A DNA stretch of 64,000 nucleotides from Polyangiaceae bacterium. GTDB taxonomy: Bacteria; Myxococcota_A; Polyangia; Polyangiales; Polyangiaceae. Shown here piece after piece: positions 7,501-26,774 of this stretch (the stretch's first letter is position 1; every line of letters begins with the position of its first letter). The position numbers and the translations under genes are program-made. Under the pieces are notes generated by a model. It did not search any database. It saw only the letters and a list, made by a program, of their open reading frames with translations, and had not been told where the DNA came from. The DNA lies in NCBI GenBank assembly GCA_050287085.1, contig JBNKBE010000001.1:160001-224000 (forward strand), read 5' to 3'.

Positions 7501-8528
7501 GTCTGGCCGTCTGTGCGCAGGGCACTTGCGTTGGCTGCTTGACCGCCGCCGACTGCAACGACGGAGACGCCTGCAACGGGATCGAAGTCTGTTCATCCGG
7601 GAATTGCATGCCGGGGACGCCACTCGAGTGCGCCGACTCGCCTTGCACCCGCGCCAGCTGCTCGGGCGGGGAGTGCCTATATGTGCCCATCACGGGGCCG
7701 TCCTGCGACGACGATACGAACATGTGCAACGGCGGCGGGACGTGTGAAAGCGGCGAGTGTACCCCCACTGCAGCACTGGATTGCCAGAGCACCGACGCCT
7801 GCCAAATCGGTAGCTGTGATCCGAGCGCCGGATGTCTGGTGGAAGACGCGCCGGACGGTACAGCCTGCGACGACGGCAATCCGTGTAACGGCAGCGACGT
7901 ATGCGCAATGGGTGTCTGCATTTCAGGCGCGGCGACGTGCAACGACGGCAATCCTTGCACCGCGGACTCCTGTGGCGCAGCCGGTTGCCTGCATACCGCC
8001 GTCGCCAACGGAACGAGCTGCGACGATGGCAACGCTTGCACCACCGGCACTCAGTGTACGGCGGGAGTCTGCTCCGGCGGCACCTCGAATTGCGATGACG
8101 GAAACCCCTGCACCACCGACGCCTGCGGCGCCATGGGCGGATGCACACACAACCCCGTCACCAACGGAACGAGCTGCGATGATGGCAACGCTTGTACCAC
8201 CGGCACTCAGTGTACAGCGGGAGTCTGCTCCGGCGGCACCCCTGCGTGTGACGATGGCAATCCTTGCACCACAGACGCTTGCGCGGCCGGCACCGGAGCT
8301 TGCACCAACACTCCGGCGGCCGATCGCTGCAATCTCGACGTAGTTCAGGAATGCACTACGGCTGGTTGGGCCACCAAAACCGATTGCGGAGCAACCGGAG
8401 AAGTCTGTTACAGCGCCGCTTGTTGCGCACCGAGCGGCCCTAACGACTGCGCGCCTGAGGACTGTGACCTAAGCGGGCTGGACGACGGTTGCGGCGGCAC
8501 CTACGACTGCCCCGCCTGCCTCAACTAG
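4551..8528 (+). CDS. Giant Cys-rich repeat surface lipoprotein (1325 aa)
   Basis: Signal ending in PAGC. Three successive repeat classes: C-x-(P/E)G-x-x-x-C-x-G-x-x-L-x-x-C...W, then C-x4-DC-x5-8-C, then CDDGN(P/A)CT. Starts directly after the stop of the previous gene. Confidence 0.85.
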   Translation: MLGPVRRLVVLTLRGVLPLIALAPAGCDHFVAGGPDASLMDGGSIDNSSGGGPPMSMEGGAGGVSPDAAQCEPGTPRCTESVLQVCSEDAVFKARELCASAELCEEEGCAPPICDSKELACDQGTLSQCHESLTDWEPLLQCPSADQCDPSRGTCEACVPGTFTCNRRELLTCTEESSWQIVEVCDSHALCNYEAGRCDETACAEGATRCDGTRFQQCADSLDRWETIESCVSAGLCVPRLGCLPVVCEIGEHICDGNRLLACRADQGGYEPLDTCQGPAYCNASAGVCTETPCEPGEQQCSGKSLQQCNDTRDAWTELELCATSSLCVSGGSGEFHCTAPLCDRDEYSCDGAQLRRCAQGRNAWLDVEECETEALCSASADQGLGGCKPPVCAKGQHRCSPDGSVLESCKDGRTGYQIEAQCEIGQCDAARGVCAPCIVGEYACNGSRLQRCDEGDGWVFVRQCLADALCDAEGAGCREAECEVGTFQCDEQTLSRCNPTTLLWETVRTCDDGTVCDKLSGQCDLCEPGTSFCEGDVRQVCNAEGRGYIAQQCAAGRCTTDGCLVCEPGSFSCSGSLQLEQCSADGKGVEQRADCSGVGTCQASQARCCGPNTPLGCNYDNRGVRFCGGDGVSAIVQACNGEQGDTCVNGSCASCDPGTGVTQCNSAGTNVQECVNGQFRDAQRCDFGCISRPAEGRGFCAPDCRPWNATRCVANNESVQVCGDNGTWAFSAPCEFGCLPALGNCAPTCRPGTKRCAQGQPQSCDATGRWVNAGPACAAECFGGDCVECLTGSDCSSPSKAACSAAHACVACTKDADCGNLPGLPRCADGLCVACTTDNDCGQGVCDTQTRACVECLANSDCASPSKPVCGGDGQCQPCGGGGDCDAPRVCDTRIGSGTRGQCLGCLSDDDCINSAQPRCGSNGSCFECLSKADCGPGELCSGSGRCVQCVADADCKTATASVCTNNNCEPCTNNADCAHLDGLAVCAQGTCVGCLTAADCNDGDACNGIEVCSSGNCMPGTPLECADSPCTRASCSGGECLYVPITGPSCDDDTNMCNGGGTCESGECTPTAALDCQSTDACQIGSCDPSAGCLVEDAPDGTACDDGNPCNGSDVCAMGVCISGAATCNDGNPCTADSCGAAGCLHTAVANGTSCDDGNACTTGTQCTAGVCSGGTSNCDDGNPCTTDACGAMGGCTHNPVTNGTSCDDGNACTTGTQCTAGVCSGGTPACDDGNPCTTDACAAGTGACTNTPAADRCNLDVVQECTTAGWATKTDCGATGEVCYSAACCAPSGPNDCAPEDCDLSGLDDGCGGTYDCPACLN
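8005..8270 (+). repeat. Intragenic tandem duplication, 156-bp (52-codon) period
   Basis: CCAACGGAACGAGCTGCGA...TGCTCCGGCGGCACC occurs at 8005 and 8161, encoding NGTSCDDGNACTTGTQCTAGVCSGGT twice with only synonymous differences in the core. Confidence 0.9.
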
Positions 8529-11134: not shown

Positions 11135-12472
11135 TCAATCGGAATGTTCAAATTGAATAGGCTCGAAACTGTCCTGACGCTCGGTATTCCCTGAAGCTAA
11201 CTGACCCGATTCGTTAGCCCCTGAACACGCAACGTCGTTTCCTTCAAAAATCACGCAAGTGAAGAATCGACCGGCTGCCACTGCCACCACGCTCGCCGCA
11301 ACGCGTGCCGGCTCGGTACGCGCGTTGACATCGTTCAGCCCGAGTTGACCTTCAATATTGCGTCCCCAACACCAGAGCACCTGTTCGGTATTGATCGCAC
11401 ACGAGTGAAAGGTATTCGAGCTCAGCTCGCGCCAGCTTCCCTCAATGGTTGCGATCGGTTCGATGGCACCTGCCACAGCCGTTCCAAAAGGACCTTCAGG
11501 CGAGCCGACATTGAGTCCCCAACACCAGAAACTTCCGTCCACGGTCAATCCGCACGAGTGGTTTTGGCCGGCCGCCACTCGCTCCCAGCGCTGCAACTCG
11601 CCATTGCGCGTCGGCGCACGACGCTGCTGCTCGTCACTCGTGGAGGTCTCGTGATCCGTATTGCGACCAAAACAGTACAGCGCCCCAGCCGTTGCGACAC
11701 CACAAGTATGACCATTGCCCCCCGAAAGCCAGCGCATGGGCTCGACGTCGACGGCTCTAGGTGACAGGGCGTCGCGGGCTTTCTGATCGCTCGAATAGCG
11801 ATCCCCCAACCCGAGCTGTCCTTCGAAGTTGGCTCCCCAACACCACACGCTCCCGCCCTCATCGATCGCACAGCTGTGGCTTGACCCGGCCGTGATAAAT
11901 ACCATCGGGGCTGGCAGCGAAACCGGCTCCATGGACCCATCGTCCTGACGAGTTCCACGACCTAGCTGGCCGTGCTCCCCCCGTCCGGCACAATACACTT
12001 TGCCCTCGACGGACAGGGCACAAGTGTGGTCGTCCCCAGCGGCGACCGCGCGCCACGGAACGTCCGCGCGCACCTCCGTCGCCACTTGAACGAGCTCAGC
12101 ATGCCCCAATCCAAGCTGCCCATAGGCGTTGTTCCCCCAGCAGTACAAGCGCTCCTGGAGAACGGCGCAAGCATGAGCCACCCCCGCCGTCACCCGGGGG
12201 TTCGAACCGGCCGTCGCGGGATCCGCCCAAGCCCCGGATGCGTCCGCCCCAGGAGCGCTCCGCCGCCCCGCATCGAGCGCATCCTCCGAAGCTCCCTTCT
12301 GGGGTGCACGCCGGATCGGTGTGGAGGCGCCAGGGCTTCGCTCACGGGTCAGGACCTCCACGCTGCGGCTGCACGCCGGCAATCCAGCCCCTTGGGACAG
12401 GATAGCGATGCACAGGGCAAGGACACGACCCACCGCGCGGCTCCCGAATACAGTCAACCGTTCAGCGTTCAT
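11135..12472 (-). CDS. RCC1/BLIP-II repeat (beta-propeller) lipoprotein
   Basis: About 7 repeats of (A/S)GxxH(T/S)C(A/G)...(V/L)(Y/W)CWGxNxxGQLG. LPAC lipobox-like site. ATG 12472 overlaps the upstream stop (ATGA). Confidence 0.9.
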   Translation of the reverse strand: MNAERLTVFGSRAVGRVLALCIAILSQGAGLPACSRSVEVLTRERSPGASTPIRRAPQKGASEDALDAGRRSAPGADASGAWADPATAGSNPRVTAGVAHACAVLQERLYCWGNNAYGQLGLGHAELVQVATEVRADVPWRAVAAGDDHTCALSVEGKVYCAGRGEHGQLGRGTRQDDGSMEPVSLPAPMVFITAGSSHSCAIDEGGSVWCWGANFEGQLGLGDRYSSDQKARDALSPRAVDVEPMRWLSGGNGHTCGVATAGALYCFGRNTDHETSTSDEQQRRAPTRNGELQRWERVAAGQNHSCGLTVDGSFWCWGLNVGSPEGPFGTAVAGAIEPIATIEGSWRELSSNTFHSCAINTEQVLWCWGRNIEGQLGLNDVNARTEPARVAASVVAVAAGRFFTCVIFEGNDVACSGANESGQLASGNTERQDSFEPIQFEHSD

Positions 12473-13470
12473 GGCGTCAGACTCGCCCCCAAGTATAACA
12501 GTACTCCTGCCCGCGTCAGGCCCGCGCGGACCGTCCCGTTGTCCGTGACAGCCAATTCTCGGATCGGCAGCGAGATGCCGGCGCCCGCGATGCCATGAAG
12601 ACGCTCGCTCAAGTCCCACTCAGCAGCCAAGCGAGCGTCCAGAGCGACAGTGCTGCCACCTGCGCTTTGCCCAATGACGCCTGGCTCCGCCTTGCCCCGG
12701 AAGCGCCAGTAGCCGCCTTCGATTCCTAATTGTGGGTGTAGGTCAATACCGCGCACGGCCCAGCGGAACCCGAGCGCCACCCGCGCGTGAAGTCCCTGGC
12801 CGGAGATCAGGCCATGGGAGAATTGGCGCGGTAGCGCAGCGCTTCCCCCGAGCGCCAAGACCCAGTTCAACCTTTGGCTCAGCGGATAGCGTGCGGCAAG
12901 CTCTCCCCCCAGAAGTGCACTGGCGCGCCAGTAGTACCGACCGGATAGCAGCGCCTGCAGAGCTCCAGCAGGCTGCTCCAAGGACGACGTACTGGTCGCG
13001 GGTGACCTCACGGGCGCCGAGGGAGGCTCCGCAGCGGGGGCGGCGCGCACCACGCGCGGCAGTGCGGCAAGCATCTCGTCCGCGGCGAGGGCCAGTGCCA
13101 GCGCCTGCCCATCGGGTGGCAGCAAACGAAGGTCAACACCCCGTCGGGCACGTTCATGCCCCACGGAAACCAGGACAAGCGCATGCTCGTCACCGGCAAA
13201 GGTGATTCGCACAACGCCGTGAACCCCTTCACCGTCCCCGGCGCATAGGATCAGCTCCCGCGCTGCCAACTCGCTATACAGGTCTTGGACTAGAGCTGAG
13301 CGCAACGCATTCGACGCGCCGCCGGACACTTCTAGAGCTACCCCGTCGTCGGTCGTGTCAGCACACGCCGGGAGCTCGGCCAGCCCTGATGGGACCGCCA
13401 ACGCGGAGCGTACGCTGAACACCAGGGCGAATGCGCTCGCCACGCCAGTCCTACGCCCTACGCAACCCAT
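12469..13470 (-). CDS. Secreted protein, probable C-terminal outer-membrane beta-barrel
   Basis: Signal-like ASAFALVFSVRSALA, Pro-rich linker, and a C-terminal half of alternating amphipathic strands ending GVLLYLGASLTP. Start inferred. Confidence 0.6.
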   Translation of the reverse strand: MGCVGRRTGVASAFALVFSVRSALAVPSGLAELPACADTTDDGVALEVSGGASNALRSALVQDLYSELAARELILCAGDGEGVHGVVRITFAGDEHALVLVSVGHERARRGVDLRLLPPDGQALALALAADEMLAALPRVVRAAPAAEPPSAPVRSPATSTSSLEQPAGALQALLSGRYYWRASALLGGELAARYPLSQRLNWVLALGGSAALPRQFSHGLISGQGLHARVALGFRWAVRGIDLHPQLGIEGGYWRFRGKAEPGVIGQSAGGSTVALDARLAAEWDLSERLHGIAGAGISLPIRELAVTDNGTVRAGLTRAGVLLYLGASLTP

Positions 13471-13565
13471 CACCGTGCCATGCTGTATCGGAGCGCGCGC
13501 CCACCGCAAGGATACAGGCCGCCGCCCGTCGGTCGGGCCCATCGCAACACACACCCTCAATCGCA

Positions 13566-14801
13566 CTATCGGGGCGACGAGCCGAGGCAGCCACGCGCCA
13601 CCGAGTCGGCATGCAGTCCCCGTGGGTAACGCTGCAGGTAATCCTCTCGCGCCTTTCGGCACGCATCGAGCTGCCCCAGCGCGTCGTAGACGCGAACCAG
13701 ACGGGCTCGGGCATCACCGGCGAAGCTAGCCCCACCGGCCGACCTCACTGCATGCTTCAGCGCCCGCAGGGCGCCCGGCATGTCTCCGAGACGATCCATC
13801 CGCAGTCGCCCCAACTCAAAGGCTGCCAGTCCCCCTCGCTCGTCGGCCGGATAGCGCCTCAACAGCTCAGCGTACGCGGCTGCAGCGTCCGCGCTCCGAC
13901 CAGAACGCCGCGCCTCCGTGGCGCGATCCCACAATGACTTGGCACTTCCTTCGCCGATAAGCTCGGCGGTCGATGGCTTCTTGGGCTCCTGGCTCGACGG
14001 CGCCGGCAGGGAGCGTCTAGGGATATTGGCGTCCGTTTCTGAAGGCCTCGCCGGCCCCGACGTAGCGCTAGCCCCCGAGGCGACGGACTGCCCACGTTCG
14101 ACAGTCACGGTATTGCCAGCCCCCAGCGAACGACTACGACCGGACGGGTCGCGAAGGACCACCGCACCTCGCAGAACCGCCACGATCACGCGACCTGCAA
14201 CCCCAACTTCGACCACGAAGCGGCCCTCTGTGCCCTCTACAAGCAGCTCTCCGGCGCGGACGCGCAGGGGGGCCGGCGAACCGTCCAAGGTCACGCTCAG
14301 GGTGCCCCGGCGGAGCTCGACCTGCGTCGTCGCCGCTGTTGCCTGAGAAACGGTCGCAGCGGAATGCTGCCCGAGTTCAAGTGACGCTCCGCAGTCGACA
14401 TCCAAGCTCAACGGTACATCCTCGGCCACGTAGACAACCGGCGCGGAGTCGTTCGGCGTTCCGGGACTCGCCAGCTTGCCCCCCGACGCCTGCGCCCGTG
14501 GTGATTCAGCAAGCGGAGGACGATCGGACTGCAGACCGTTTGACGAAGCGCCCACCCGCTCAGACGCTCCCGCTGCCGAGCCTCCACGGGCGAGCAATGC
14601 TTCTTCACGCGGCCCGATTCGGGTCAGAAACCCCACCAGAAGCGCTGATGACGCTAGCGCGCCCGCGGAAACCAGCAGCCACGGAGCCATCGGCCCCCGC
14701 CTTCTTCCCTCGAGTCGTTGCGCAATCGCCTCATAGCTGCGCTCCAGTCGAGCTCGCTTGAGCTCAACGGGCACGTACTCCGACAGCCGCGGCTCGGTCA
14801 T
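13566..14801 (-). CDS. FecR-like anti-sigma factor with C-terminal TPR domain
   Basis: RBS AAGGAG upstream. One TM helix, FecR-like VELRRGTL...LRVRAGELLVEGTEGRFVV...VAVLRGAV, then TPR ending YLQRYPRG. Confidence 0.8.
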   Translation of the reverse strand: MTEPRLSEYVPVELKRARLERSYEAIAQRLEGRRRGPMAPWLLVSAGALASSALLVGFLTRIGPREEALLARGGSAAGASERVGASSNGLQSDRPPLAESPRAQASGGKLASPGTPNDSAPVVYVAEDVPLSLDVDCGASLELGQHSAATVSQATAATTQVELRRGTLSVTLDGSPAPLRVRAGELLVEGTEGRFVVEVGVAGRVIVAVLRGAVVLRDPSGRSRSLGAGNTVTVERGQSVASGASATSGPARPSETDANIPRRSLPAPSSQEPKKPSTAELIGEGSAKSLWDRATEARRSGRSADAAAAYAELLRRYPADERGGLAAFELGRLRMDRLGDMPGALRALKHAVRSAGGASFAGDARARLVRVYDALGQLDACRKAREDYLQRYPRGLHADSVARGCLGSSPR

Positions 14802-14847
14802 GGCTTCTCCTTGGAGGCCGAAGCCGATGGAACCAAAAGACGTATCA

Positions 14848-15432
14848 TCATCGCTTGCGCGCTCGCTGGATCCGCGCGTCCGCCGCAGCTAGGCGGCGCT
14901 TGACGGTCGCTAGGGACAACCCCATTTGTTCCGCTATATCGGTTAGTTCCAGCCCCTCGATGCGTCGCAGAACAAGCGCCACGCGCTCCTCGGCGGGCAA
15001 CGCCTCGACCATGGAATAGACAGCGCGCAGCTCCGCCCGAACGTCCGGGGGGGCGTCGTCCGAGATCAGCTGGGCCCAATCGAGAGGCTCGGGCTGAAGC
15101 ATCCCCAGGCGCACCAGCAAACGTCGCCGACGCAGACGCTTGCTCGCGGTCCGCACTACAATCGACGCAAGCCAAGAGGCAAACGCCTGCGGGTTGTTCA
15201 GCGTTTCGAGCTTTGAGAACGCGAAAACAAAGGCATCCTGGACCAGATCGTCCACCTCGCCCCGCCCTGCCAGCACCCGGTGAGCCAGCCCGAAGGCGAG
15301 CCCGGCGTGGCGACGGTAGAGGGCTTCTTGGGCGGCGGCGTCGCCTTGCCGCGCCGAGACCACCAATTCCGCATCGCGGACCTCCGACAACGCCCCCGAT
15401 CGGGGTACCCTGGGAACAACCCGAGAACGCAT
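14848..15432 (-). CDS. ECF-type RNA polymerase sigma-70 factor
   Basis: DAELVVSARQGDAAAQEALYRRH, DDLVQDAF, FASWL, and region 4 LPAEERVALVLRRIEGLELTDIAEQMGLSLATVKRRL. Start could lie further upstream (frame open to 15735). Confidence 0.92.
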   Translation of the reverse strand: MRSRVVPRVPRSGALSEVRDAELVVSARQGDAAAQEALYRRHAGLAFGLAHRVLAGRGEVDDLVQDAFVFAFSKLETLNNPQAFASWLASIVVRTASKRLRRRRLLVRLGMLQPEPLDWAQLISDDAPPDVRAELRAVYSMVEALPAEERVALVLRRIEGLELTDIAEQMGLSLATVKRRLAAADARIQRARKR

Positions 15433-15823
15433 TTCCGTCGCCTCGGACTGCTCCGAGCAACTTCGCGCCGAAGGCGGAGCCAGCTCCAGCGCCTCTATTG
15501 GACCACTCTTCGGAGCCGTCGCCAGCGCGGCGCCCCCGGCGCTGGGAGCCTGACTGGTACGCGAAGCCCGGGCAGAATCGTCCAAGACCCCAGATGCAAG
15601 CGCATGCGAAGTCGGACCTGAGCCTGAAGCAGAGCGAACCACGAGACATCCTAGCCTACCGCCTTTGAGCCGCGCGCCAATCAGAAAGCCGCGATTTGGT
15701 CGAGCGCCTGCTACAAATGTCCCAGCATTGCTCACCTGCGGCTCAGATTTCTTCGAGGTCGATATGGCCCACGCAACTTGTTGGCCCTAGGCGACCCGAG
15801 CTATATCGTCTCCAAGGTGCGCA

Positions 15824-18214
15824 TTGAAGGCCGAGCATAGCGACGAAACCAACAGCGCCGCTGCGTCCGAGCGGAACGGATCTCCTCCTAGTACTCTCCC
15901 TCCAGCGGATTCGGACGTCCTGATCGGCACGACGCTGCACGAGACCTACGCCGTGCAGCGCGTGATTGGCGAAGGCGGCATGGGACGTGTCTACGAGGCT
16001 CGGCACACCCGGATCAAGAACAAGCGCTTTGCGCTCAAAGTGTTGCACGCAGAGTACGCCGCCAACACCGAACTCCAATTGCGCTTTCAGCGCGAAGCCG
16101 AAGCCGCCGCGGCGATTGAACACCCAGCGGTAGTGGGCACCTATGACATAGGACGAACGCCACAAGGCTCTCCCTATCTGGTGTCTGAGTTCTTGCAGGG
16201 GCGCGACCTAAACTCCTATATCGTTGAGGTCGGAGCACTGCCCGAGAGGGTTGTGCTCCGAGTCGGAATCCAGCTGTGTCGGGCCCTCGCGGCGGCCCAT
16301 GCAGAGAACGTGATTCACAGGGACATGAAGCCCCACAACGTCTTCGTCCTCGGCAGCGGAGAACTGGAAGCCGAAAGCCCCGTCGACGTGAAAGTCCTCG
16401 ACTTCGGCCTTTCGCGCTTCGTTGACCACGACAGTCAACTCACCAAGACGGGCGTCGTCCTGGGAACCCCGGGCTATATGTCGCCCGAGCAAGCACAAGG
16501 CCAGGAAACAACAAAGCGGACAGACATCTACGGTATCGGGGCGATTCTCTATGCTGCCGCAACGGGGCGCCCACCGTTCAAAGAGAAAACGCCACAACTG
16601 ACTGTGCTGGCGGTGATGCACCGAGAGCCCCAGCGTCCACGCGACGTCGAGCCTCGGGTTTCTGCAGAGCTCGAATGGGTCATTCAGCGGGCGATGGCTC
16701 GCGAGCCGCAGCAGCGTTTTGCAACGCCCGAAGAGATGGAACAGGAGCTGCTGCAGTTGCTCGGCGAGCCGACGCAAGCCCGCCGCTCGCTCCCCGAAGA
16801 CGCCGGTCCGACCGCGGCCCGCACGCGCCTGCTAATGTGGCTGCTGGCCGCCTTCGGGCTGCTGGCGGCTTGGGCGCTGACGGCTTTCAGCGCGGCCTTG
16901 CACCTGGTTCGGGCGGAGTCGCCAACAGGTCGCATTGGGGCCTCTTTCGTCGCCGCCGGCGCTTGCCTGCTGGCTCCCGTGTTCATCTGGAGACGACTGC
17001 GCGCGACGGTTTGGAACAACACCGCACACGTCGTTGACGCCCTGAAGCAGGCTCGCCCGCCAGTGGCGACAGGGCTGGCGGCGTACGGTGCCAGCGCGCT
17101 CCTCGTACGGGTTCTGGAAACCGGCATTCCATCCCTCTCGCAGCCGCTGCACGAGTGGCGGGGTTGGGGCCTCTCGCTCGCGCTCGTGGGGGCCATCTAC
17201 GCGTCGTTTGCCGCCGTCGTTGCCAGTCCCAAGCGGAGCCGCTTGCTGCCTCCGCGGCTCTTGTTTGCGCTCGCCTTCGTTCTGGGTCTCTTGGTCCTCG
17301 CTTCGAGCGTATCGAGCGCGCTGCGCGGTGTTGAATCAGCGGACGCGCTCGAAGTCCCACCGAGTGCGCCGAACGTCCCCCCGAAAGCCCCCGCGCCCAC
17401 GCGAAGTGGCGGCCACGAGCGCATCGCTGACGGCCTTATCACGGCGCGCGACGGAGGACGCGCAGATGCGGGCCCGACCGCTCTGTCCCAAGGCGTCGCA
17501 GACTCACCCATCATCGTGGACCTCGATCCGACGGACGATAGCAGCCTTGGCGGCGCCCCCAACGAACAACATGCCGATGTCGCGGAACTCAGCAGCGCTG
17601 TCGCAGAAGGGGCCGCCGCGTTGGAGTCACTGACCCGGAGTTACCCGCGGGACCCCGAAGTTCATAAAGCGCTGGTTCTGGCTTATGCGGCGCGGGCCTC
17701 GACCCTCGCAAGTTCCGTGGACGCCATCCGCCGGCTGCTTCGCATCGACATAGACTACGCCGACGATTCCGAAGTGCGTATCATTCTCACCAAGGCACTG
17801 ACGACGGATGGCGCGCCGCAGAAGGCGGCATTCTCGGTGTTGGAGAATGAGTTCGATGTGCGAGCTGGGGCACTGGTCTTTGACTTGCTGGTACGCGCGG
17901 GACGCGATCGAACCACTCTAAATCGGCTATTCCTGCGCCTCCGACGAAAAGCGAAAACCAGCAGCCCCGTCAACATTGCGTACGACTTGCGCTTCGCCCC
18001 CTCGTGCTCTGCACGAGTGAAGTACCTTCCCCAAGCGCGCGCCGTGGGAGACATTCGAGCGATCGCAGCACTGCTCCCTTTGGTCACCCCGCCTCGCGGA
18101 TGCCAAGGAAGACAATGCCGCGTCCAGTGCGAAAGCGAAGCGGAGGCGTTCGAGTCCGTGCTCGCCGCTATCCGGGCCCGCTTGGGCGGCGACAGTGGCA
18201 TGACCGAGCCTTGA
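15824..18214 (+). CDS. Multi-TM Ser/Thr protein kinase
   Basis: GEGGMGRVY, FALKVL, HRDMKPHN, DFGLSR, GTPGYMSPE. About 5 hydrophobic helices, then a helical Cys-containing C-terminal domain. Confidence 0.95.
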   Translation: MKAEHSDETNSAAASERNGSPPSTLPPADSDVLIGTTLHETYAVQRVIGEGGMGRVYEARHTRIKNKRFALKVLHAEYAANTELQLRFQREAEAAAAIEHPAVVGTYDIGRTPQGSPYLVSEFLQGRDLNSYIVEVGALPERVVLRVGIQLCRALAAAHAENVIHRDMKPHNVFVLGSGELEAESPVDVKVLDFGLSRFVDHDSQLTKTGVVLGTPGYMSPEQAQGQETTKRTDIYGIGAILYAAATGRPPFKEKTPQLTVLAVMHREPQRPRDVEPRVSAELEWVIQRAMAREPQQRFATPEEMEQELLQLLGEPTQARRSLPEDAGPTAARTRLLMWLLAAFGLLAAWALTAFSAALHLVRAESPTGRIGASFVAAGACLLAPVFIWRRLRATVWNNTAHVVDALKQARPPVATGLAAYGASALLVRVLETGIPSLSQPLHEWRGWGLSLALVGAIYASFAAVVASPKRSRLLPPRLLFALAFVLGLLVLASSVSSALRGVESADALEVPPSAPNVPPKAPAPTRSGGHERIADGLITARDGGRADAGPTALSQGVADSPIIVDLDPTDDSSLGGAPNEQHADVAELSSAVAEGAAALESLTRSYPRDPEVHKALVLAYAARASTLASSVDAIRRLLRIDIDYADDSEVRIILTKALTTDGAPQKAAFSVLENEFDVRAGALVFDLLVRAGRDRTTLNRLFLRLRRKAKTSSPVNIAYDLRFAPSCSARVKYLPQARAVGDIRAIAALLPLVTPPRGCQGRQCRVQCESEAEAFESVLAAIRARLGGDSGMTEP

Positions 18215-18236
18215 ATGGGTCCTGGCCCCCGCGGCC

Positions 18237-18629
18237 TCAGGCCTCTATCAGCGCGGCTGGACCGCCCGCTGCAATGAAGCGCGCATAGTCCCAAGGCTCG
18301 TCGCTCAGACGCGAGAGAAACTCATCGCGCAACACATACACCCAGACCGCAAAGCGGCGCTCGGGAACAACCATGATCGGTACCCGAATGCGGCGGTACT
18401 CGGTCCCTTCATAGCCGTCGAGACGCAACAACTCACGCCCTCCTATCCCCGTCACCACACGCCCCCAAACGTGCGTCCCGAACTCCGGGCGCAGTCCCGG
18501 ATAGCTTTGCCCACGTACCGTGTAACAACCAAAGTGCGACAAGCAGGCAATTCGGCTGGCATGCCGCCTGCCAACGATGTGCCGCCACACGAGGGGTGAC
18601 AACAAACTCCCATACACGAATAGGTCCAC
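18237..18629 (-). CDS. Gamma-glutamylcyclotransferase (AIG2-like) family protein
   Basis: LFVYGSL, YPGL, LDGYEGTEYRR, WVYV. Confidence 0.85.
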   Translation of the reverse strand: MDLFVYGSLLSPLVWRHIVGRRHASRIACLSHFGCYTVRGQSYPGLRPEFGTHVWGRVVTGIGGRELLRLDGYEGTEYRRIRVPIMVVPERRFAVWVYVLRDEFLSRLSDEPWDYARFIAAGGPAALIEA

Positions 18630-18799
18630 CGAAAGCCTGTATCATGGTCCAAGGCCCCAGGCCCCCCACCTAGAATTCGGCGGCTGCCCCCGCTCCGGGA
18701 ACTTGCGCCCCAAACGGCGCCTGCAAACCATCTCGGTCGCGCGCCCAGCGCGGCGCATTTGACCTGCCGGGCCGACGACAGGCAACATGGCACATCGTT

Positions 18800-20410
18800 A
18801 TGACTGATCGCGCCACCGCTTCCCGCCGGGTTTCCGTTCGCTCATGCCGGACTCGGCGGCCAGGCCGTCGCTCGGCAGCGCTGAACCTTCTGCTCGCCGC
18901 CGCCGCCACGGGCTCACTGTTGACGAGCGGTTGTGCGCAGGTGCGAGAACCCGGCGCCAGCAAGTCGGAACTGCTGGCAGAGCGCAAGGCCAAGGCCTGC
19001 GAGCCACACCAATTCCGCTGCGATGACGGAACGTGCATCACCCGCCAATGGCGTTGTGATGGTGACAACGATTGCCCGGATCGCTCGGATGAAAAGAGCT
19101 GCAGCTGTAGTCGGGACCAATTCGCCTGTGACGAAGGAGCTTGTATCTCCGCTGAAGCCGAGTGTGACGGAACCGAAGATTGCGCGCACGGGGAAGATGA
19201 AGCTGAGTGTGACTGCAAAGATGACGAGTTTTCCTGCGGCAACCACCAATGCATTCATGAGTCGGATGTCTGCGACGGCACCGAAGACTGCGCTGAGGGC
19301 GAAGACGAGAAAGGCTGCGCTTGCGCCGACGACGAGTTCGCGTGCGACGACACGTGCCTTCCCCGTAGCGTGGTATGCGACGGCGACACCAATTGCGTCG
19401 ATGGTAGCGACGAAGCGGAGTGCGATTGTGATGGCTTCCGCTGCGAGGACGCCACAAGCTGCTTACCCGCAGACAAGCGCTGCAACGGTGACGCGGACTG
19501 CGAGGATGGCTCCGACGAAGCTGGTTGTTGTGAAGACAACCAGGTTACTTGCGCCGACGGCACGTGCCTCGAATCCTGGACGCGCTGCAATGGCATGAAC
19601 GAATGTGGCAGCGGCGAGGACGAAGCCGACTGCGCCTGCGAAGCAGGCCTCTATTCCTGTGATGACGACACGTGTATCGATCCGCGACAAGCGTGCAATC
19701 ACGTGACGGTGGCGGGTTGTCCCCAGGGCGAAGACGAACTGCGCTGCCCCGCCTGCAACGACTGGCAATTCATGTGCAACAACGGCCAGTGCGTACCGCG
19801 TGCGTGGCGCTGCAATGGCAGGGTTGATTGTATCGACAGCAGCGACGAGAAAGACTGCCCAGAATGTGACGGCAAGCTGGACTGCAGCGCAGAGAGCTGC
19901 GTCTGTGTGAAAGACTGCGCCACCCGCCCCGAGATGTGCCCTGTAGGCACCTGTGAAAGTCAGGGCGAAACCAAAGATTTCATTCGCTGCAACGACCTAC
20001 TCGATTGCGACGACGGGAGCGACGAAGCCGACTGCCCCTGCGCGCCGGACGACTTCGTGTGTCCGGAAGGCGGCACCACCCCTGCTTACTGCGTGCCGGC
20101 AGCCTGGGCCTGTGACGGCTTGCGAGACTGCCCGGGGGGTACCGACGAAGCAAACTGCGAGTGCAGGGAGGGTGACTTCATGTGCCCGGCGGGAAACGGC
20201 GTAGTGGGACACTGCATCTCCGGACTCTGGGCATGCGACGCCTACCCAGACTGCGCGGACGCCAGCGACGAGGCCGATTGTCCCTGCGAGAGCGGCGCAT
20301 ACCTATGCCCAGCCACCAGCGTGACGCGAGCCTACTGCGTCCCGGGAGAGTTCGAGTGTGACAGCCTCGTCGACTGCCCCGATGGTGCCGATGAAGCGAA
20401 CTGCAAATAG
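18800..20410 (+). CDS. Lipoprotein composed of ~12 tandem LDL-receptor class A repeats
   Basis: Signal ending in LTSGC. Modules such as [35 protein letters not shown] match the six-Cys LDLa pattern with acidic DCxDxSDE ends. Confidence 0.9.
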
Positions 20411-20416
20411 CTTGCA

Positions 20417-21673
20417 CTACGCAAGGGCGGCGCGTCCAATCGCCCTCGTCGGAACGATGGCTCCGAGGCGAGCGAGCACCGCATATAGCCCAAACAACGC
20501 GCGGTGCAGCAGCAATACCTCGCGCGGCAACGGCACCAAACTGCCGTCCCGCGTCTTCAACGCCCCGCGCAGCAGCCGCATCACAGACGTCGCCTCACGG
20601 ATAAAGGAACGCTCGAAACGAAACCGCTCTTCAAACATCGGTCGAAATAGACACCGCATGAAACGTTGCATGCCGGCTTCGTAGTCCCCCCCACGAAGAG
20701 CAAAGTAGTCGCGCACGGCAGCTTCGAAGGCCGGCAGATTGGCTTCCAACGCCGCGGCCAACAATCTCCGAAGTCGCACTGCACGGGCCGGAGCCAGCTG
20801 CTGAACGCAGCCGAAATCGAGGAATACAACCTTGCTGTCCCGACAGAACAGATAGTTGCCGGGATGAGGATCAGCGTTGAACGCACCCGCCCGCAGGACG
20901 CTCGTCACGAAGAAACGAAATAACGTCTCTGCGTAGAACTGACGATGCCGTTCGCTGTGCGTCAAAGCGTCGCGAAAGCTTTCCCCGCTACTGAAGTGTG
21001 TCGTTAGCACGCGGCGGCGTGACAGCTCCGGCACCAAACGCGGCACATAGATAAACTCGTCTTCCGCGAAAGCCTCTTCGAAGGCCGTCAGATTGCGAGC
21101 TTCGCTTTCGTAGTCGAGTTCCCTCAGCAACTGCCGTGCGAGTTCCTCACTCAATTCGCGCGCGTTCAAACTGGCCGGAGCCAAGCGCGCGACCAAGAAC
21201 TCAAGCCAACGAGCGTTCGCCAAATCCGCGCGCATGGCGGCTTCTATTCCGGGGTGTTGTACTTTGACGGCCACACTGCGCCCATCGCGCAGCCGAGCGC
21301 GATGCACCTGTCCGACGCTTCCGCTCTTCACGGGCACAGAGTTCCAGCGCTCGAAAAGAGCCTCTGGAAGTGCCCCCAACTCCTCGCGTATGATCTGAGC
21401 AATAGGCTCAACGGGCGACGCCATGGCCTCGTCTTGGAGGCGCCAGAATGCGTTCTCGAATCCCGTGGCCTGTCCCCCAGGCGCAAAGCCCTCTACATAC
21501 CCCAGCCACTGCCCGGCCTTCGCGGCAGGGCCCCGCAACGCGGACAAGGCGCGGGCCGCATCTTCCAGCCGCTTGCTGCCCCCGATGCCAACGGCGGCAG
21601 CTCCAACACACGATGCAGCTTTGGCTCCTTGGGCCAAGCGACTGACGCGCGTCGTGGGGAGCGGTGCGACCAT
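20417..21673 (-). CDS. AarF/ABC1/UbiB family atypical kinase
   Basis: LRGPAAKAGQ (KxGQ), SVGQVHRA, VAVKVQHPG, ELDY, ADPHPGN, LDFG. Confidence 0.9.
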   Translation of the reverse strand: MVAPLPTTRVSRLAQGAKAASCVGAAAVGIGGSKRLEDAARALSALRGPAAKAGQWLGYVEGFAPGGQATGFENAFWRLQDEAMASPVEPIAQIIREELGALPEALFERWNSVPVKSGSVGQVHRARLRDGRSVAVKVQHPGIEAAMRADLANARWLEFLVARLAPASLNARELSEELARQLLRELDYESEARNLTAFEEAFAEDEFIYVPRLVPELSRRRVLTTHFSSGESFRDALTHSERHRQFYAETLFRFFVTSVLRAGAFNADPHPGNYLFCRDSKVVFLDFGCVQQLAPARAVRLRRLLAAALEANLPAFEAAVRDYFALRGGDYEAGMQRFMRCLFRPMFEERFRFERSFIREATSVMRLLRGALKTRDGSLVPLPREVLLLHRALFGLYAVLARLGAIVPTRAIGRAALA

Positions 21674-21948
21674 AGCCCTAGTCCTAGGCCGGCGCGGGGC
21701 CGGTTGACAATACCGTCAGCGTGCGGACGCACGGATCCGGCTGGATTGGCGTCGCTCGCCACAAGGAGTCGTTCGCTCTTGGAACTGGCCGCGTGCTGCC
21801 GGCCGGGTTTTTAGGCAACTCTTCGGCCCAACACGTCCGGCGCGGCGAAGCCGCCACAGCAGACAGGTGGGACCGCTGCCACTTCGACCTCGAGCTGAAA
21901 AGGGCCTTTGCAGGCCCTCCGAGAGCTCCGGGCGAGGGAAAACGAATG

Positions 21949-22815
21949 TCAAGGCGTGATCCGCACAGCCCAACCGACGGCGCGAATACGAGCCGCAAGA
22001 TCCTGGAACCAGTCGTCGGACAGCGCGCTCAGGCGTGGCGCCTCAGCTTGAAGCGATGGGCGCGAAAGGCCGTAGAGCAGGACCCCGCGAAGCGGAATCC
22101 CCTCGCTTTTCAGCCGCTGCAGCAACGCAAGATACGCTTGCTGCTCGGAAGCTTCGGGGGCGCTCCCGTCGATGGCAAACAGACAGGTCTGCAACCAGGT
22201 TGGATGACGAGCGGCTATTCGAGCCAGGCGAGCCTCACGTGCCGCCAAGCTCGCGCTCGACGAGTTGATCCGCTCTGTGCCCGCCCGGGTTGCGGCATCC
22301 AGCTTAAACCACACTTCGATAGGCCACCGCGCCAAGACGTCCAGGCCGCGCTCGACGGAGGGCGCATCAGTGCGCGTCCCGTTGGTGATGAGCACGATTT
22401 TGAAGTCCGCGGGAAGCGTAAACCGCGATAGAATAAGAGCTACCTCGGCCGCGACCTGTTCAAAGTTGGGACACGTCGTGGGTTCCCCATTGCCCGAAAA
22501 AGCGAGATCGTTGAGCCGTCGCATCCCCTCGGGAACGCGGCGCGTCATGAAGTCGCCGCAAATCAAGTCGTCTAGAAGCTCTGTCAGCTCCAGCCGCAAG
22601 CGATCGATATCAACCGCTGGTGCCTTCCCCCACTTGAGGTTTGGAACCTGGCAGTAGATGCAGCGAAAATTGCAGGCATTGTTCGGATTGAGGTTGACGC
22701 CGAGCGACACACCTCCGGCGCGGCGCGACAGTACCGGGTAAACATAGGTCATACCGGTCGCATCCCGATCATGGTCTGCGATGCTGAGAAGCCGGCGCGC
22801 TGTGAGTCGCGTCAT
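21949..22815 (-). CDS. Radical SAM protein
   Basis: CNFRCIYC (CxxxCxxC), FSGNGEPT, LITNGT. Confidence 0.9.
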   Translation of the reverse strand: MTRLTARRLLSIADHDRDATGMTYVYPVLSRRAGGVSLGVNLNPNNACNFRCIYCQVPNLKWGKAPAVDIDRLRLELTELLDDLICGDFMTRRVPEGMRRLNDLAFSGNGEPTTCPNFEQVAAEVALILSRFTLPADFKIVLITNGTRTDAPSVERGLDVLARWPIEVWFKLDAATRAGTERINSSSASLAAREARLARIAARHPTWLQTCLFAIDGSAPEASEQQAYLALLQRLKSEGIPLRGVLLYGLSRPSLQAEAPRLSALSDDWFQDLAARIRAVGWAVRITP

Positions 22816-22870
22816 GGGTAGCGTAATGTCCTATGCATCGGGAATGCGACCAACAGGAGAGCCGAACGAG

Positions 22871-22894
22871 CCCGCGGTCTAAAACGACCGCGGG
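22871..22894. terminator. GC-rich hairpin, possible terminator downstream of the 22923 gene
   Basis: Perfect 9-bp inverted repeat CCCGCGGTC-taaaac-GACCGCGGG. No strong U-tract. Confidence 0.5.
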
Positions 22895-22922
22895 TCAAAG
22901 GACTGCAAGCCTCCGCGGCGGT

Positions 22923-23570
22923 CTACTTGATGGCTTGCAGCAGCTTGCGCAGATCGGCGACCGCGTTGCTCTTGTTGGTGTAGGTCTTCTGGTTATCGTG
23001 GCAGCTTGAGCACTTGAAGCTTTGTCCCTTTGACTTGCCCTGCTTGACCCAATACTTCATCACCGCCTTGGCCTTGGGAACGCCCCCTTTTTCGCAGGAA
23101 GCTCTGACCTGAGAGAACTTAAAGGAGGTCGCACGACAGGGACTGGGACCGTCGTATTTCTCCGCTTTGGGCGGCGCCTTGGGCGGCGTCTTGGGTGTCG
23201 CCGTCGCCACCGGCTTGGGGGCGCTCGGTGCAGCCGGCGGCTTGACTGCCGCCTTACCAGACGCTGTTGGCGACTTGACCAGGTGTGCACTCTTAGCGCT
23301 GGCGCTAGTCGTGGGCGGCGCTGCTTTGCCGGCGTCCTGAGCGGCGACGCCTGCGTCAGCCCGTTGCTTCGTCCCTTCGAGAGTCTTCCCCCGAGCTCCG
23401 CTCGCCGCGGAGTTATCAGCCGCAGGGGTGTCGGCAATCGTCCCCTTGCTATCGGCGGCAGCAGCCGGAGCCGACTCAGTCGCCTCCTTCTTTGAGCACC
23501 CTGCGGCAGTCACAGCACCCAGCGCACAGGCGCCCGTCAACAGAAGACTGAATCGTGTTGTTCTATTCAT
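22923..23570 (-). CDS. Lipoprotein with Ala/Pro/Lys linker and single CxxCH heme-binding motif
   Basis: Signal with AAGC lipobox, low-complexity linker, C-terminal domain containing FKCSSCH. Confidence 0.75.
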   Translation of the reverse strand: MNRTTRFSLLLTGACALGAVTAAGCSKKEATESAPAAAADSKGTIADTPAADNSAASGARGKTLEGTKQRADAGVAAQDAGKAAPPTTSASAKSAHLVKSPTASGKAAVKPPAAPSAPKPVATATPKTPPKAPPKAEKYDGPSPCRATSFKFSQVRASCEKGGVPKAKAVMKYWVKQGKSKGQSFKCSSCHDNQKTYTNKSNAVADLRKLLQAIK

Positions 23571-23903
23571 GGCTATTCGATCTCTTCATCGTCGCACTGC
23601 AGGCCTCTTCGCGAAAACAAACGCGGTCCGCCGGGCGTCCGCGGCGCGCCCGCTCGTTTGCGGGTGAGCCCGGGGGGTTGGACATGTAGCTTCGTTTGCT
23701 CCGAGTGCCTCGGGAGAGGACATCAACTCAATGTCCAGGGTCCCGTCCACGTAGGGCTAGCAAATGCAGCCCAGCAAAACCAAGCACGAAAAGAAAGCCG
23801 ACCCGAAGCGGCCCCATAGCGGCGTTCAAACAAACACGTTCCGATCTGACAGCAACGACTCAGAAACGCTCAAAAGGCCCCTCTTCCGGCCGCTCACGAA
23901 GTT

Positions 23904-24248
23904 GTGGATGTGTTGGTGATCTCGGTTTTCGCGTCACTTTCGGTCCTATTTGGCGCTGCCTACTGGGTCGAACGCCAAGTGCGCGCCAGCATTGATCGCT
24001 CGGAAGCCGCCAGGAAGGAGCCGGTGCACATCTCCGCTCCCCCTCCCGCGGCTGTGCCCCCCAAGACGCGAGAGCGCATCGAGGAAGTCACCCACAAGCT
24101 CGATGAACTCCATCACCGCCGCTCAGCCTTCCAACGGGCGATGAGCTCGGGCCTGGCTCAGGTCTCTAGGCCTCGCGCCGCGCCCGGCGGCGGGACAAGC
24201 CCCGCAGCTCCAAAGCCAACGAAGGGATCCCCTGATCCCCCCCTATAA
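23904..24248 (+). CDS. Small hypothetical protein with N-terminal membrane anchor
   Basis: Hydrophobic N-terminus VLVISVFASLSVLFGAAYW and a short helical segment. GTG start. Confidence 0.5.
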   Translation: MDVLVISVFASLSVLFGAAYWVERQVRASIDRSEAARKEPVHISAPPPAAVPPKTRERIEEVTHKLDELHHRRSAFQRAMSSGLAQVSRPRAAPGGGTSPAAPKPTKGSPDPPL

Positions 24249-24374
24249 CGGCCGGAGCGTCCGATACTTTAGGGCCCTGCGCTGGAAAGTCGGCCCCGTC
24301 CGCCAATTTGTCTAGTGGGCCGTTTCGGTTCCGCCTTCGAGCACACCTGCCGACCCGGCGACGTCCTTCGCGCC

Positions 24375-25559
24375 TCAGCGCAGGGCGGCTAGCGCGTCAT
24401 CCAAGACCGTCAAGACGTGGGTGACCTCGTCCGCCGCGTTGGCCAGGTGGGGAGCAAAGCGCAGGAACCCGTCCGGTGTTCCGACCGTCACCCCATTGCT
24501 CCGCAATCGGCCCGCGAGCTCCGACAGATCGATGCCCTCGGGGGGCACTACCGACAGTATCCCCGAGCGGTGGGAGGGCTCGGCAGCCCGCGCGGAGCCG
24601 AAACCGCGCTCGATGAGCGCTGGCTCCAGCGCGTCGTGGTACGCCTGAATCCCCGCATAGACACGCTCGATCCCGACGCCGAGGAGCAGCGGAATGCTCG
24701 CGCCGAGAGCCGCGTGCCCCAGGGTATTGCCAGTCCCTTCCTCAAAGACCTGGGTCTCCTGACGGAAAGGCCGATCGTAGCTCAGATGTCCGCGCCCCCG
24801 GAATAGAAAGTCCAGCGCGTGCTCGTGACTCAACCAACCTGCGGTGAGCGGTCGAAGTTGCTTCACACAGGCCTTTCGGGCGTACAACACCCCGGCTCCT
24901 TCAACCCCAAGCAACCATTTGTGCCCCCCCGAACTCAAGTAGTCGACCCCCATCGCGCGCACGTCCAGGGGGACTGCGCCCAGGCCCTGTATTGCGTCAA
25001 CGAATAGCTCGGCTCCGAAGCGATGACATAAGCGGCTCATGGCTGCCAACGGAACACAGAACCCCGTTTGAAACTGCACAAAGCTCACAGCGACCAGGCG
25101 GACGCCGTCTTTGAGAACCCGCTCCAGGGCTGCGAGACCTCCGTCGGCATGATGGGAAGGGGGAGGCAGCCACACAAGTTCGAGCTCGAACTGACGGGCC
25201 GCAATTTGCCATGGCGTAACGTTCGCCGGAAACTCCCCTTGAAACAGCACGACCCGTTCACCGCGCCGCCAGGGAATGCCCAGAGCAATGTCCGTCACCC
25301 CCCGCGTGGTGTTGGTCCCCAGAGCGATCTCTTCGGACTCCGCCCCGAGCAAGCGAGCGAAATCAGCTCGCAACGTCTCGCGACGAGCAGCCCAGTCGCC
25401 AAACGCCCCTGCGCCCCGTGTTGCGTAATCCTGGAGGCAGGTGGCCACAGCCGTCTGAACCGGAGCACACGGCGGGGAAATCGCTGCGTGATTGAGATAC
25501 GCGACGCCCCGGAGGTTGGGAAACAGTTCAGCTCTGGTGAACGCAAGCTCCGCCTTCAT
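24375..25559 (-). CDS. PLP-dependent aminotransferase class V (cysteine desulfurase-like fold)
   Basis: YLNHAAISP, FVDAIQGLG, SGGHKWLLG (PLP lysine), FEEGT. Confidence 0.9.
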   Translation of the reverse strand: MKAELAFTRAELFPNLRGVAYLNHAAISPPCAPVQTAVATCLQDYATRGAGAFGDWAARRETLRADFARLLGAESEEIALGTNTTRGVTDIALGIPWRRGERVVLFQGEFPANVTPWQIAARQFELELVWLPPPSHHADGGLAALERVLKDGVRLVAVSFVQFQTGFCVPLAAMSRLCHRFGAELFVDAIQGLGAVPLDVRAMGVDYLSSGGHKWLLGVEGAGVLYARKACVKQLRPLTAGWLSHEHALDFLFRGRGHLSYDRPFRQETQVFEEGTGNTLGHAALGASIPLLLGVGIERVYAGIQAYHDALEPALIERGFGSARAAEPSHRSGILSVVPPEGIDLSELAGRLRSNGVTVGTPDGFLRFAPHLANAADEVTHVLTVLDDALAALR

Positions 25560-25760
25560 GCATGCACGCTAGCACATCTTTTCGCATTGCAATTGGCTCA
25601 GCGATTGGCTTGACTGATCGACGGCCTGTGCGGCTCGCGACTGCGGCAGCGGGTCCCGCTCCGTCGCCTGCGGAACACGCGACCCTTTGGAAAGCGCGAC
25701 CCAACCGGCTCATGATGTTTGTGATGACTGTCGCCGCGTGACAGCTCCGCCTCCCCGATC

Positions 25761-26774
25761 ATGCGACTGCTCATCGAAACCCACCACCCGGCGCATATTC
25801 ACTTCTTCAAACACGCCGTGCGTCATTTTAGAGCGCAGGGAGCTGAGGTGCTGCTCCTAGGCCGGGATCGCGATGTGATGCAACGTCTACTTGCCAGCTA
25901 CGATGACCTCCCGAGTCGCATCATCACACAAGCGGGCAAGAACAACACGTTTCCTTTGCAGGAGATGGTGCAACGACAATGGCAGGTGGCTCGGACGATT
26001 CGTGAATTCGAACCGGACGCCGTGCTCAGTCTGATGGGCAGCTACTCGCAGAGCGCACGCATGCTCGGAGTGCCCAACATCGTCTTCACGGACAGCGAGT
26101 TCCAGCACTTCAATCACCGCATCGCGCATCCTTTTGCGACCCGCATCTACACTCCGGAGTGTTTCTACAAGCCGCTGGGCCCAAAACAGCGGACCTATCG
26201 TGGGTATCATGAGCTCGCGTTTCTCCATCCAAAGCGCTTTCGGCCAGACCGGGGTGTGCTCGACCTGCTGGGCGTCGAAGCGGGCCGGTATGTCATCGTC
26301 CGCGTCTCAGCTTGGGACACGCTGCACGACGTAGGAGAGTCCGGCTTCGGCGCCCAATTGGACGAGACCCTCGAAGCGCTGTCCCAGCGCTTCCGGGTGT
26401 TCATTGTGCCGGAACAGGGAAAACTCGCCGCCCGCTGGCGCCCTATGCAGCTAGAACTCCCCCCACATCGCTTCCACGACGCGTTGGCCTTTGCCGCTTT
26501 CGTCGTATCCGAAGGGGCATCGACCGCAGCCGAAGCCGCTTGCCTGGGCGTCCACGCACTCTACCTCAACAGCACCACACGCGGCTACCTCAACGACATG
26601 GCACGCCGCTACGGTCTCGTATCAATCCACCAGCACTCGGACGACGCGCAGCGTCAACTGCGCCGCTGGCTCACTTGCCCCCCAACGGACGGGCAGAAGC
26701 GTGCGCAAGAACTGATCGCAGACCATATCGACGTCACGGATTTCGTAATTCACGAGATCGAGAACCTGGTATGA
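25761..26774 (+). CDS. DUF354-like putative glycosyltransferase (GT-B fold)
   Basis: HPAHIHFFK, FTDSE, YRGYHELAFLHPKRFRPD, SEGASTAAEAACLG. Confidence 0.75.
   Translation: MRLLIETHHPAHIHFFKHAVRHFRAQGAEVLLLGRDRDVMQRLLASYDDLPSRIITQAGKNNTFPLQEMVQRQWQVARTIREFEPDAVLSLMGSYSQSARMLGVPNIVFTDSEFQHFNHRIAHPFATRIYTPECFYKPLGPKQRTYRGYHELAFLHPKRFRPDRGVLDLLGVEAGRYVIVRVSAWDTLHDVGESGFGAQLDETLEALSQRFRVFIVPEQGKLAARWRPMQLELPPHRFHDALAFAAFVVSEGASTAAEAACLGVHALYLNSTTRGYLNDMARRYGLVSIHQHSDDAQRQLRRWLTCPPTDGQKRAQELIADHIDVTDFVIHEIENLV

Follow-up and report, generated by a model that had tools for sequence, protein, structure and literature searches.

A long array of LDL-receptor class A modules in a probable lipoprotein of a Polyangiaceae bacterium

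The LDL-receptor class A module (LDLa, PF00057) is presented in teaching as a receptor module of animals, or at least of eukaryotes, in which the disulfides pair as C1-C3, C2-C5 and C4-C6. The best sequence and fold matches of the bacterial protein described here (P0001) are the ligand-binding LDLa arrays of animal LDLR, VLDLR, LRP8 and megalin (LRP2), with which it shares the six-Cys spacing, the Asp-Glu end, the predicted fold and the tandem arrangement. It differs from this family in exhibiting a lipobox instead of a transmembrane helix, in having no YWTD propeller, EGF module or cytoplasmic tail, in its shorter linkers, and in that the third acid of the ligand pocket is mostly missing. In the small receptors CD320, LDLRAD3 and Tva, which carry one to three LDLa modules, these modules are the sole folded part, as they are in P0001, which in contrast has 12 modules and a probable bacterial lipid anchor. 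Module 10 of P0001 aligns end to end with the Tva chains 1jrf and 1k7b (40 on 40 residues), although the match is weak (E 0.004). The alignment is in line with Tva having the same long hairpin as module 10, and the likeness is most likely convergent.

Closer to the source organism, some proteins of the same phylum already bear database labels. For example, Enhygromyxa salina WP_052554162.1 (KIG14185.1) is named 'Low-density lipoprotein receptor domain class A' in UniRef, and MDH5673666.1 of Myxococcales is named 'LDL receptor domain-containing protein' by NCBI. Both exhibit, like P0001, a lipobox-like Cys signal and a C-terminal LDLa array. However, an unnamed Cys-helical domain is followed in them by about three four-Cys modules, whereas P0001 has 11 six-Cys modules and almost no stalk. 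Myxococcus xanthus TraA (TIGR04201) is likewise an exported protein with a disulfide-rich tandem array (PMC3325183), but its repeat differs from LDLa, its head is a PA14 domain, and its anchor, at the C-terminus, is of the MYXO-CTERM type. The nearest paper found on bacterial modules of the LDL-receptor family, PMC3909097, reports class B repeats (PF00058) in Poribacteria, and these are propeller repeats, whereas the modules of P0001 belong to class A. No study of bacterial class A modules was found in the literature covered, which lay mostly outside subscription journals, and a genome paper or a table may mention them. P0001 is a long, animal-like member of a widespread, database-labelled and apparently unstudied Myxococcota family.

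Module architecture and predicted fold

The window, i.e. the whole stretch of 64,000 nucleotides that was analysed, contains the features listed in Table 1.

Table 1. Features of the P0001 locus, in window positions.
Feature	Position	Strand	Basis or remark
Divergent gamma-glutamyl cyclotransferase (GGACT) gene	18237-18629	-	ORF and Pfam
LDLa-array protein gene (P0001)	18800-20410	+	ORF, 536 aa; Pfam match
Probable lipoprotein signal	18800-18934	+	Pattern match; Cys45 at 18932-18934
21-residue linker (residues 46-66), short predicted helix	18935-18997	+	Model and sequence parse
LDLa module 1, Trp plus three acids	18998-19102	+	The sole module whose animal-type pocket is complete
LDLa modules 2-7, six Cys each	19106-19747	+	Ligand position lacks an aromatic; modules spaced by 0-1 residue; degenerate form in module 7
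LDLa module 8, Trp kept	19754-19858	+	Asn replaces first calcium Asp
Atypical 10-Cys segment (module 9)	19859-20035	+	LDLa C-terminal half at its end
LDLa modules 10-12	20039-20404	+	Aromatic and both calcium Asp present; hairpin loop of 9 residues; most distant from anchor
Convergent ABC1/UbiB kinase gene	20417-21673	-	Pfam; neighbour

The protein comprises 78 Cys, 123 Asp+Glu and 42 Lys+Arg. PF00057 matches it with 294.3 bits against a cut-off of 24.1 (E 1.5e-89), and ten stretches pass on their own, the two that fail alone being module 7, with its degenerate loop, and the atypical segment. No other family was found in Pfam, and there was no NCBIfam match. The six-Cys LDLa spacing is observed in 11/12 units. 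The remaining unit, ninth in order, spans residues 354-412 (59 residues), its 10 Cys follow another pattern, and its last third corresponds to the C-terminal half of an LDLa module. For its first 43 residues, no relative was present among the fetched sequences, and the leads from the Atlas scored under 0.9. The first-pass annotation of the window had likewise counted 11 regular modules and one atypical module. It had also described the whole protein after the lipobox as modules; the array does fill the rest of the chain, but a linker comes first.

An Asp-Glu pair terminates 12/12 units and is invariant in alignment A1, in agreement with the module ends originally described. In contrast, the W-x-C-D-G motif given in the same description is literal only in modules 1 and 10, Trp being present in four modules and Phe in one. 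Both calcium-cage Asp of the loop are present in 6/12 units, with Asn, Glu or Gly variants in the rest, versus 455/627 animal modules. The insertion reported for the last three modules corresponds to a C2-C3 loop of 9 residues, versus 3-5 residues in the other eight, and a loop of this length is found in 3/629 animal and 0/136 other bacterial six-Cys modules. The linkers of P0001 measure 0-2 residues at 9/9 junctions, versus an animal median of 4. The presence of true LDLa modules is confirmed; P0001 belongs to the LDLa module family and lies outside the LDL-receptor family.

The AlphaFold model, which was built from an input alignment of 46 rows of bacterial and animal LDLa arrays and leans on the animal rows, exhibits a mean pLDDT of 77 and a pTM of 0.38, the latter as expected for beads on a string. 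The regular modules reach a pLDDT of 71-94, and confidence is low only at residues 1-54 and 357-377, with values under 50 in the second stretch. The best Foldseek matches of the model are megalin, LDLR and VLDLR, and the predicted module 11 fits onto modules of VLDLR and CD320 (1.2 Å across 38 residues, Z 6.0). When modules 10-12 were folded from a single sequence, confidence was low (pLDDT 46). The modules of P0001 are predicted to adopt the LDLa fold.

Export and genomic context

The N-terminus of P0001 exhibits an Arg-rich n-region with a net charge of +8 (residues 1-26), a hydrophobic h-region and a lipobox ending at Cys45. An Arg-rich N-terminus followed by a lipobox had been proposed from the outset, and the pattern is indeed present, but position -3 is occupied by Thr rather than Leu, which departs from the consensus L-[AST]-[GA]-C (PMC3222651). 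The signal peptide is unusually long, with a long n-region: the median position of the lipobox Cys is 22 among 51 lipobox LDLa genes. P0001 probably carries a lipid anchor. Hydrophobicity is confined to one stretch that starts at residues 26-31, the top hydrophobic windows all fall within the signal, and the chain stops one residue past the last Cys, so both a transmembrane helix and a cytoplasmic endocytosis tail are missing, as the first-pass annotation had stated for a signalling tail. In M. xanthus, a Lys at +2 is the sorting signal for the inner membrane and an Ala at +7 that for the matrix (PMC3222651). By analogy, the Ala at +2 and the Pro at +7 of P0001 would default to the outer membrane, under a rule that comes from another class and is silent on the face of the membrane.

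Regarding the export and disulfide genes, the genome comprises two Lgt genes, VKOR, DsbD and nine DsbA-like matches. This enlarged disulfide-forming set fits the many Cys-rich exported proteins of the genome, which has 36 ORFs of at least 300 aa with at least 7% Cys, 21 of them with a lipobox pattern. One Lgt gene lies inside the window, at about 54448-55152. A VKOR-DsbA fusion is observed at G000:C5:286742-287680, and two ORFs exhibit three DsbA-like domains each (G000:C9:93781-95523 and G000:C33:35512-37248). Another Cys-rich protein of the window (4551-8528, +) comprises 1325 aa and 185 Cys, with a signal-like N-terminus and Dictyostelium-type repeats near its C-terminus (PF00526, E 2.5e-15). 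Tat export of P0001 was considered and rejected, as no twin-arginine fits the usual consensus, and we infer that Sec suits such a disulfide-rich protein better.

Flanked by the divergent GGACT gene and the convergent kinase gene, the P0001 gene forms its own transcription unit. The gap between its stop and the kinase ORF is six bases, exactly as first reported. None of 10 neighbours is common to P0001 and any other LDLa locus (0/97 loci). Two ABC1 homologues with 37-40% identity are present in the genus, in 2/17 genomes, and no LDLa pattern was seen in the 4-kb loci of either; the kinase is a neighbour without sign of a conserved link to P0001. Scans of the locus gave no sigma-70 site and one terminator-like site, versus 3.5 expected, and the sequencing runs listed as containing the P0001 sequence comprise no RNA run. 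Comparison with phage and plasmid collections gave no match. A six-codon ORF in another frame (window 18787-18807, +) runs across the LDLa start codon and may be either chance or a coupling element. Farther upstream, an ECF sigma factor, a TPR-bearing anti-sigma-like protein, a hypothetical protein and an RCC1-repeat protein are clustered at window 11135-15735 (-), and a Ser/Thr kinase at 15824-18214 adjoins this cluster.

Distribution of LDLa genes in the Myxococcota

Genomes were scanned with PF00057 at E 0.001 unless stated. Matches were observed in 13/17 other genomes of the genus, in 70/251 genomes of the order, a count that includes the host genome and one unpublished genome (G136), and in 47/301 Myxococcota genomes, representing 39/202 genera. 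Two other orders, picked for holding strong hits, gave 8/11 and 18/26 genomes at E 1e-6, and the control genomes gave 0/14. The single match among 301 Actinomycetota lies on a 2,021-base contig (L106) and encodes a protein with 58% identity to the Nannocystaceae type; this gene is probably mis-binned. A reading of P0001 as a rare one-off is not supported, the family being spread through the Myxococcota. Characterised orthologues, which by the first-pass annotation would remove the novelty, were not found: the relatives are many, but none was found to be characterised.

The genes that were read come from the best-scoring places rather than from a random sample and comprise 93 non-redundant ORFs, of which 20 were end-cut and dropped, leaving 73 complete genes. 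A lipobox with an upstream Met is present in 51/73, versus a mean of 11.7 and a maximum of 21 in 200 control draws from the ORFs of the host genome. The array is C-terminal in 61/73, the protein ending within 45 residues of the last module. Eight or more modules are found in 13 of these genes, and all-six-Cys arrays other than P0001 in 6, four of which are kin. At the module level, as parsed at an earlier stage, the four-Cys form, which lacks the C3 cysteine, accounts for 261/412 modules, C3 being present in 151/412. The commonest bacterial form exhibits a Cys-rich domain of about 70 residues, probably helical, before 2-4 four-Cys LDLa modules (L016, L018, L054, L056, L060 and others); no Pfam family was found for this domain in the two proteins scanned (P0293 and P0303). 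Arrays longer than that of P0001 exist: two from its genus comprise about 21 and 18 modules of the four-Cys form (L031:4146-6848 and L032:250-2742), and two from elsewhere comprise 18 and 15 of the six-Cys form (L207 and L112).

Bacterial LDLa modules are also joined to many unrelated domains, including trypsin, ZU5, FGE-sulfatase and cadherin-like domains. The host genome itself has a second LDLa gene, encoding a trypsin-family protease (G000:C9:49422-51545, -; locus L029:3423-5546) with the His/Asp/Ser motifs. The protease further comprises four LDLa modules of the four-Cys form, a pair of DUF7151 repeats and a tail that resembles MYXO-CTERM. Protease plus LDLa is a pairing of animal modular serine proteases, and its order is reversed in the Polyangiaceae protein.

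With regard to P0001 itself, the exact sequence is absent from the database looked up, and the best 120 of 1,686 matches in a protein search show 26-43% identity. Three unnamed matches are lipobox proteins with 14-16 modules. A search for related loci gave 23 pattern matches, none of which was confirmed as an orthologue, and residues 279-536, compared with 1.84 billion representative proteins, gave best identities of 36-50% and thus no orthologue above 50%. An ESM Atlas cluster comprises 91 bacterial members, most commonly Myxococcota (score 0.78, to be taken as a lead). The absence of a P0001 orthologue from these searches, together with the lack of shared neighbours, points to LDLa genes being built lineage by lineage from a common module.

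Putative ligand pocket, candidate functions and origin

The VLDLR pocket encloses a lysine of the ligand between an aromatic residue and the calcium acids; another basic residue is taken by a third acid, and the avidity of several repeats makes the binding tight. The pocket of its LA1 repeat comprises W50, D53, D55 and D57, and mutation of the third acid, D55, abolished ligand use (PMC11297306). We scored the same positions in 11 modules of P0001, module 7 being left out for its longer loop. The aromatic with both calcium Asp (D-x-x-x-D) is present in 332/627 animal modules, a set chosen by likeness to P0001 and rich in LRP8 and VLDLR, in 114/227 bacterial six-Cys modules, in 100/263 four-Cys modules and in 4/11 modules of P0001 (1, 10, 11 and 12). 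This combination is as frequent in bacterial six-Cys as in animal modules, as expected if the pocket is retained. The full pocket, with the third acid, is found in 250/627, 19/227, 46/263 and 1/11, respectively. Bacterial modules thus appear to keep the calcium cage and the first-lysine site and mostly to swap the third acid, often for a hydrophobic residue, and the binding of animal ligands is not to be assumed. The pocket aromatic may be kept for folding.

Three of the four pocket-type modules of P0001 are the last three and lie past a run of six modules that lack the aromatic and are spaced by 0-1 residue, which suggests a stalk with a binding tip. Distal placement was followed in other arrays. 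A discovery set, which was post hoc and represents about 5 independent lineages, gave 9 positive arrays, 0 negative and 2 ties among 11 informative ones. A test fixed beforehand was then applied to fresh arrays, of which three lineages qualified; these gave 1 positive and 2 negative (p 0.42), and distal placement was not confirmed as a rule of the family. With relaxed criteria, 7 arrays yielded p 0.02, but two of the rows are near kin and the result does not confirm the rule. Distal pocket placement remains a description of P0001 and of some subfamilies.

With neither a catalytic nor a transmembrane nor a signalling part, P0001 is most likely a capture or adhesion protein, and the capture of cationic partners, or adhesion, as proposed in the first-pass annotation, is plausible. 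The explanation that we tentatively favour, as possible though a little short of probable, is that P0001 is a calcium-stabilised, acidic, non-signalling string of the envelope whose aromatic/aspartate pockets, in modules 1 and 10-12, capture basic residues. The protein would be exported by Sec, processed by signal peptidase II and anchored as a lipoprotein, probably in the outer membrane. After export, up to 38 disulfides would be closed by the Dsb system. One Ca2+ would occupy the acid cage of every module, and the resulting string would be strongly acidic and closely packed. Modules 1, 10-12 and perhaps 8 would grip exposed Lys or Arg side chains of the partner by avidity, modules 2-7 would serve mainly as spacer, and the 9-residue hairpins of modules 10-12 could confer a specificity of their own. 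Several observations speak against capture: the third acid is mostly missing, 5/16 bacterial arrays of 6 or more modules have no pocket-type module at all, and the distal rule failed in the fresh set. The long signal, the non-canonical lipobox and the incomplete calcium Asp in half of the modules also weigh against a lipoprotein that captures ligands.

Another account, possible but rather doubtful, is that P0001 is a structural or calcium-holding protein of the envelope or matrix without a specific ligand, LDLa being a further Cys-rich building block of the myxobacterial surface. The Cys repeats of TraA have been proposed as a rigid stalk (PMC3325183), and a comparable role for P0001 would be in line with the number of Cys-rich ORFs in the genome, the attachment of bacterial LDLa modules to many unrelated domains, the very short linkers, and the invariance of the Asp-Glu end while the ligand face varies. 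However, P0001 has no head domain to present, the array being the whole mature protein, and modules 10-12 keep the aromatic and the aspartates and carry a rare loop.

The net charge of P0001, about -89 across 491 residues, raises the unlikely case of a non-specific sink or decoy, released or surface-displayed, for cationic molecules such as antimicrobial peptides, lytic enzymes or phage proteins. The patchy presence in the genus and the lack of close orthologues and of shared neighbours are in line with fast turnover of the gene, which would fit such a role but suits adhesins equally well. Charge alone would not need 12 folded modules, and no defence genes were seen in a Pfam scan of the neighbourhood.

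On the scale of the family, it is likewise improbable that P0001 belongs to an old Myxococcota family of surface receptors, directed at kin, prey or matrix with an animal-like calcium-cage grip on lysine, that is the source or the sister of the eukaryotic module and no late borrowing. The breadth of LDLa in the Myxococcota argues for long residence, and a bacterial source fits the spread over dozens of families, the coexistence of six- and four-Cys forms and the trypsin-plus-LDLa protease. The module tree (239 rows, 35 columns), with 5/236 inner branches well supported and the modules of P0001 scattered, neither shows nor excludes a bacterial source. In best-match scores, bacterial modules exceed the size-matched animal best for 6/11 modules of P0001 and animal modules for 5, the animal set being biased.

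The first-pass annotation had also proposed capture of lipoprotein particles. A functional LDLR analogue for the uptake of such particles, or of sterol carriers, with a link to the sterol metabolism of myxobacteria, is highly unlikely: P0001 has no propeller or EGF release unit, transmembrane part or endocytic tail, no transporter adjoins the gene in the Pfam scan, and the host genome has no oxidosqualene cyclase match at E 1e-30. Cyclase-like genes, taken as those over 360 bits on TIGR03463, are present in 9/47 LDLa-positive versus 23/254 LDLa-negative genomes (Fisher p 0.066, a test that counts kin as independent), and 38/47 LDLa-positive genomes have none; the sterol link is unsupported.

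A recent transfer from animals, a contamination or an assembly chimera is scarcely credible and largely refuted: 97 of the best 120 of 1,686 full-length matches are named as animal proteins, and for modules 1 and 8 the animal modules outscore the bacterial ones, but the identities are low, the three unnamed lipobox matches look bacterial, the family is phylum-wide, there are no introns, and the gene lies on a 491-kb contig of a 6.2-Mb genome (160 contigs, 96.8% complete, 0.85% contaminated). As the first-pass annotation had argued from GC-rich codon use, the gene has a native composition, with a GC3 of 0.70 (37th percentile) and a codon fit at the 67th percentile among the 2,609 long ORFs of the genome. 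In addition, a single re-assembled Logan contig (30.3 kb) extends over window 13000-26000 without any difference and at an even depth of 13.9; it possibly derives from the source run and so indicates a consistent assembly rather than a second sample. P0001 is a native gene of a Polyangia (Myxococcota) bacterium.

As one of many members of its family, P0001 is of modest importance on its own. The family as a whole provides bacterial, probably lipid-anchored LDLa arrays throughout a phylum, some of them longer than those of LDLR and VLDLR, with which the origin of the module and the range of its ligands become testable, and Enhygromyxa salina is a cultured carrier. The natural four-Cys forms show which LDLa disulfide is dispensable, and in the bacterial modules one residue of the ligand face appears to change with the calcium cage preserved.
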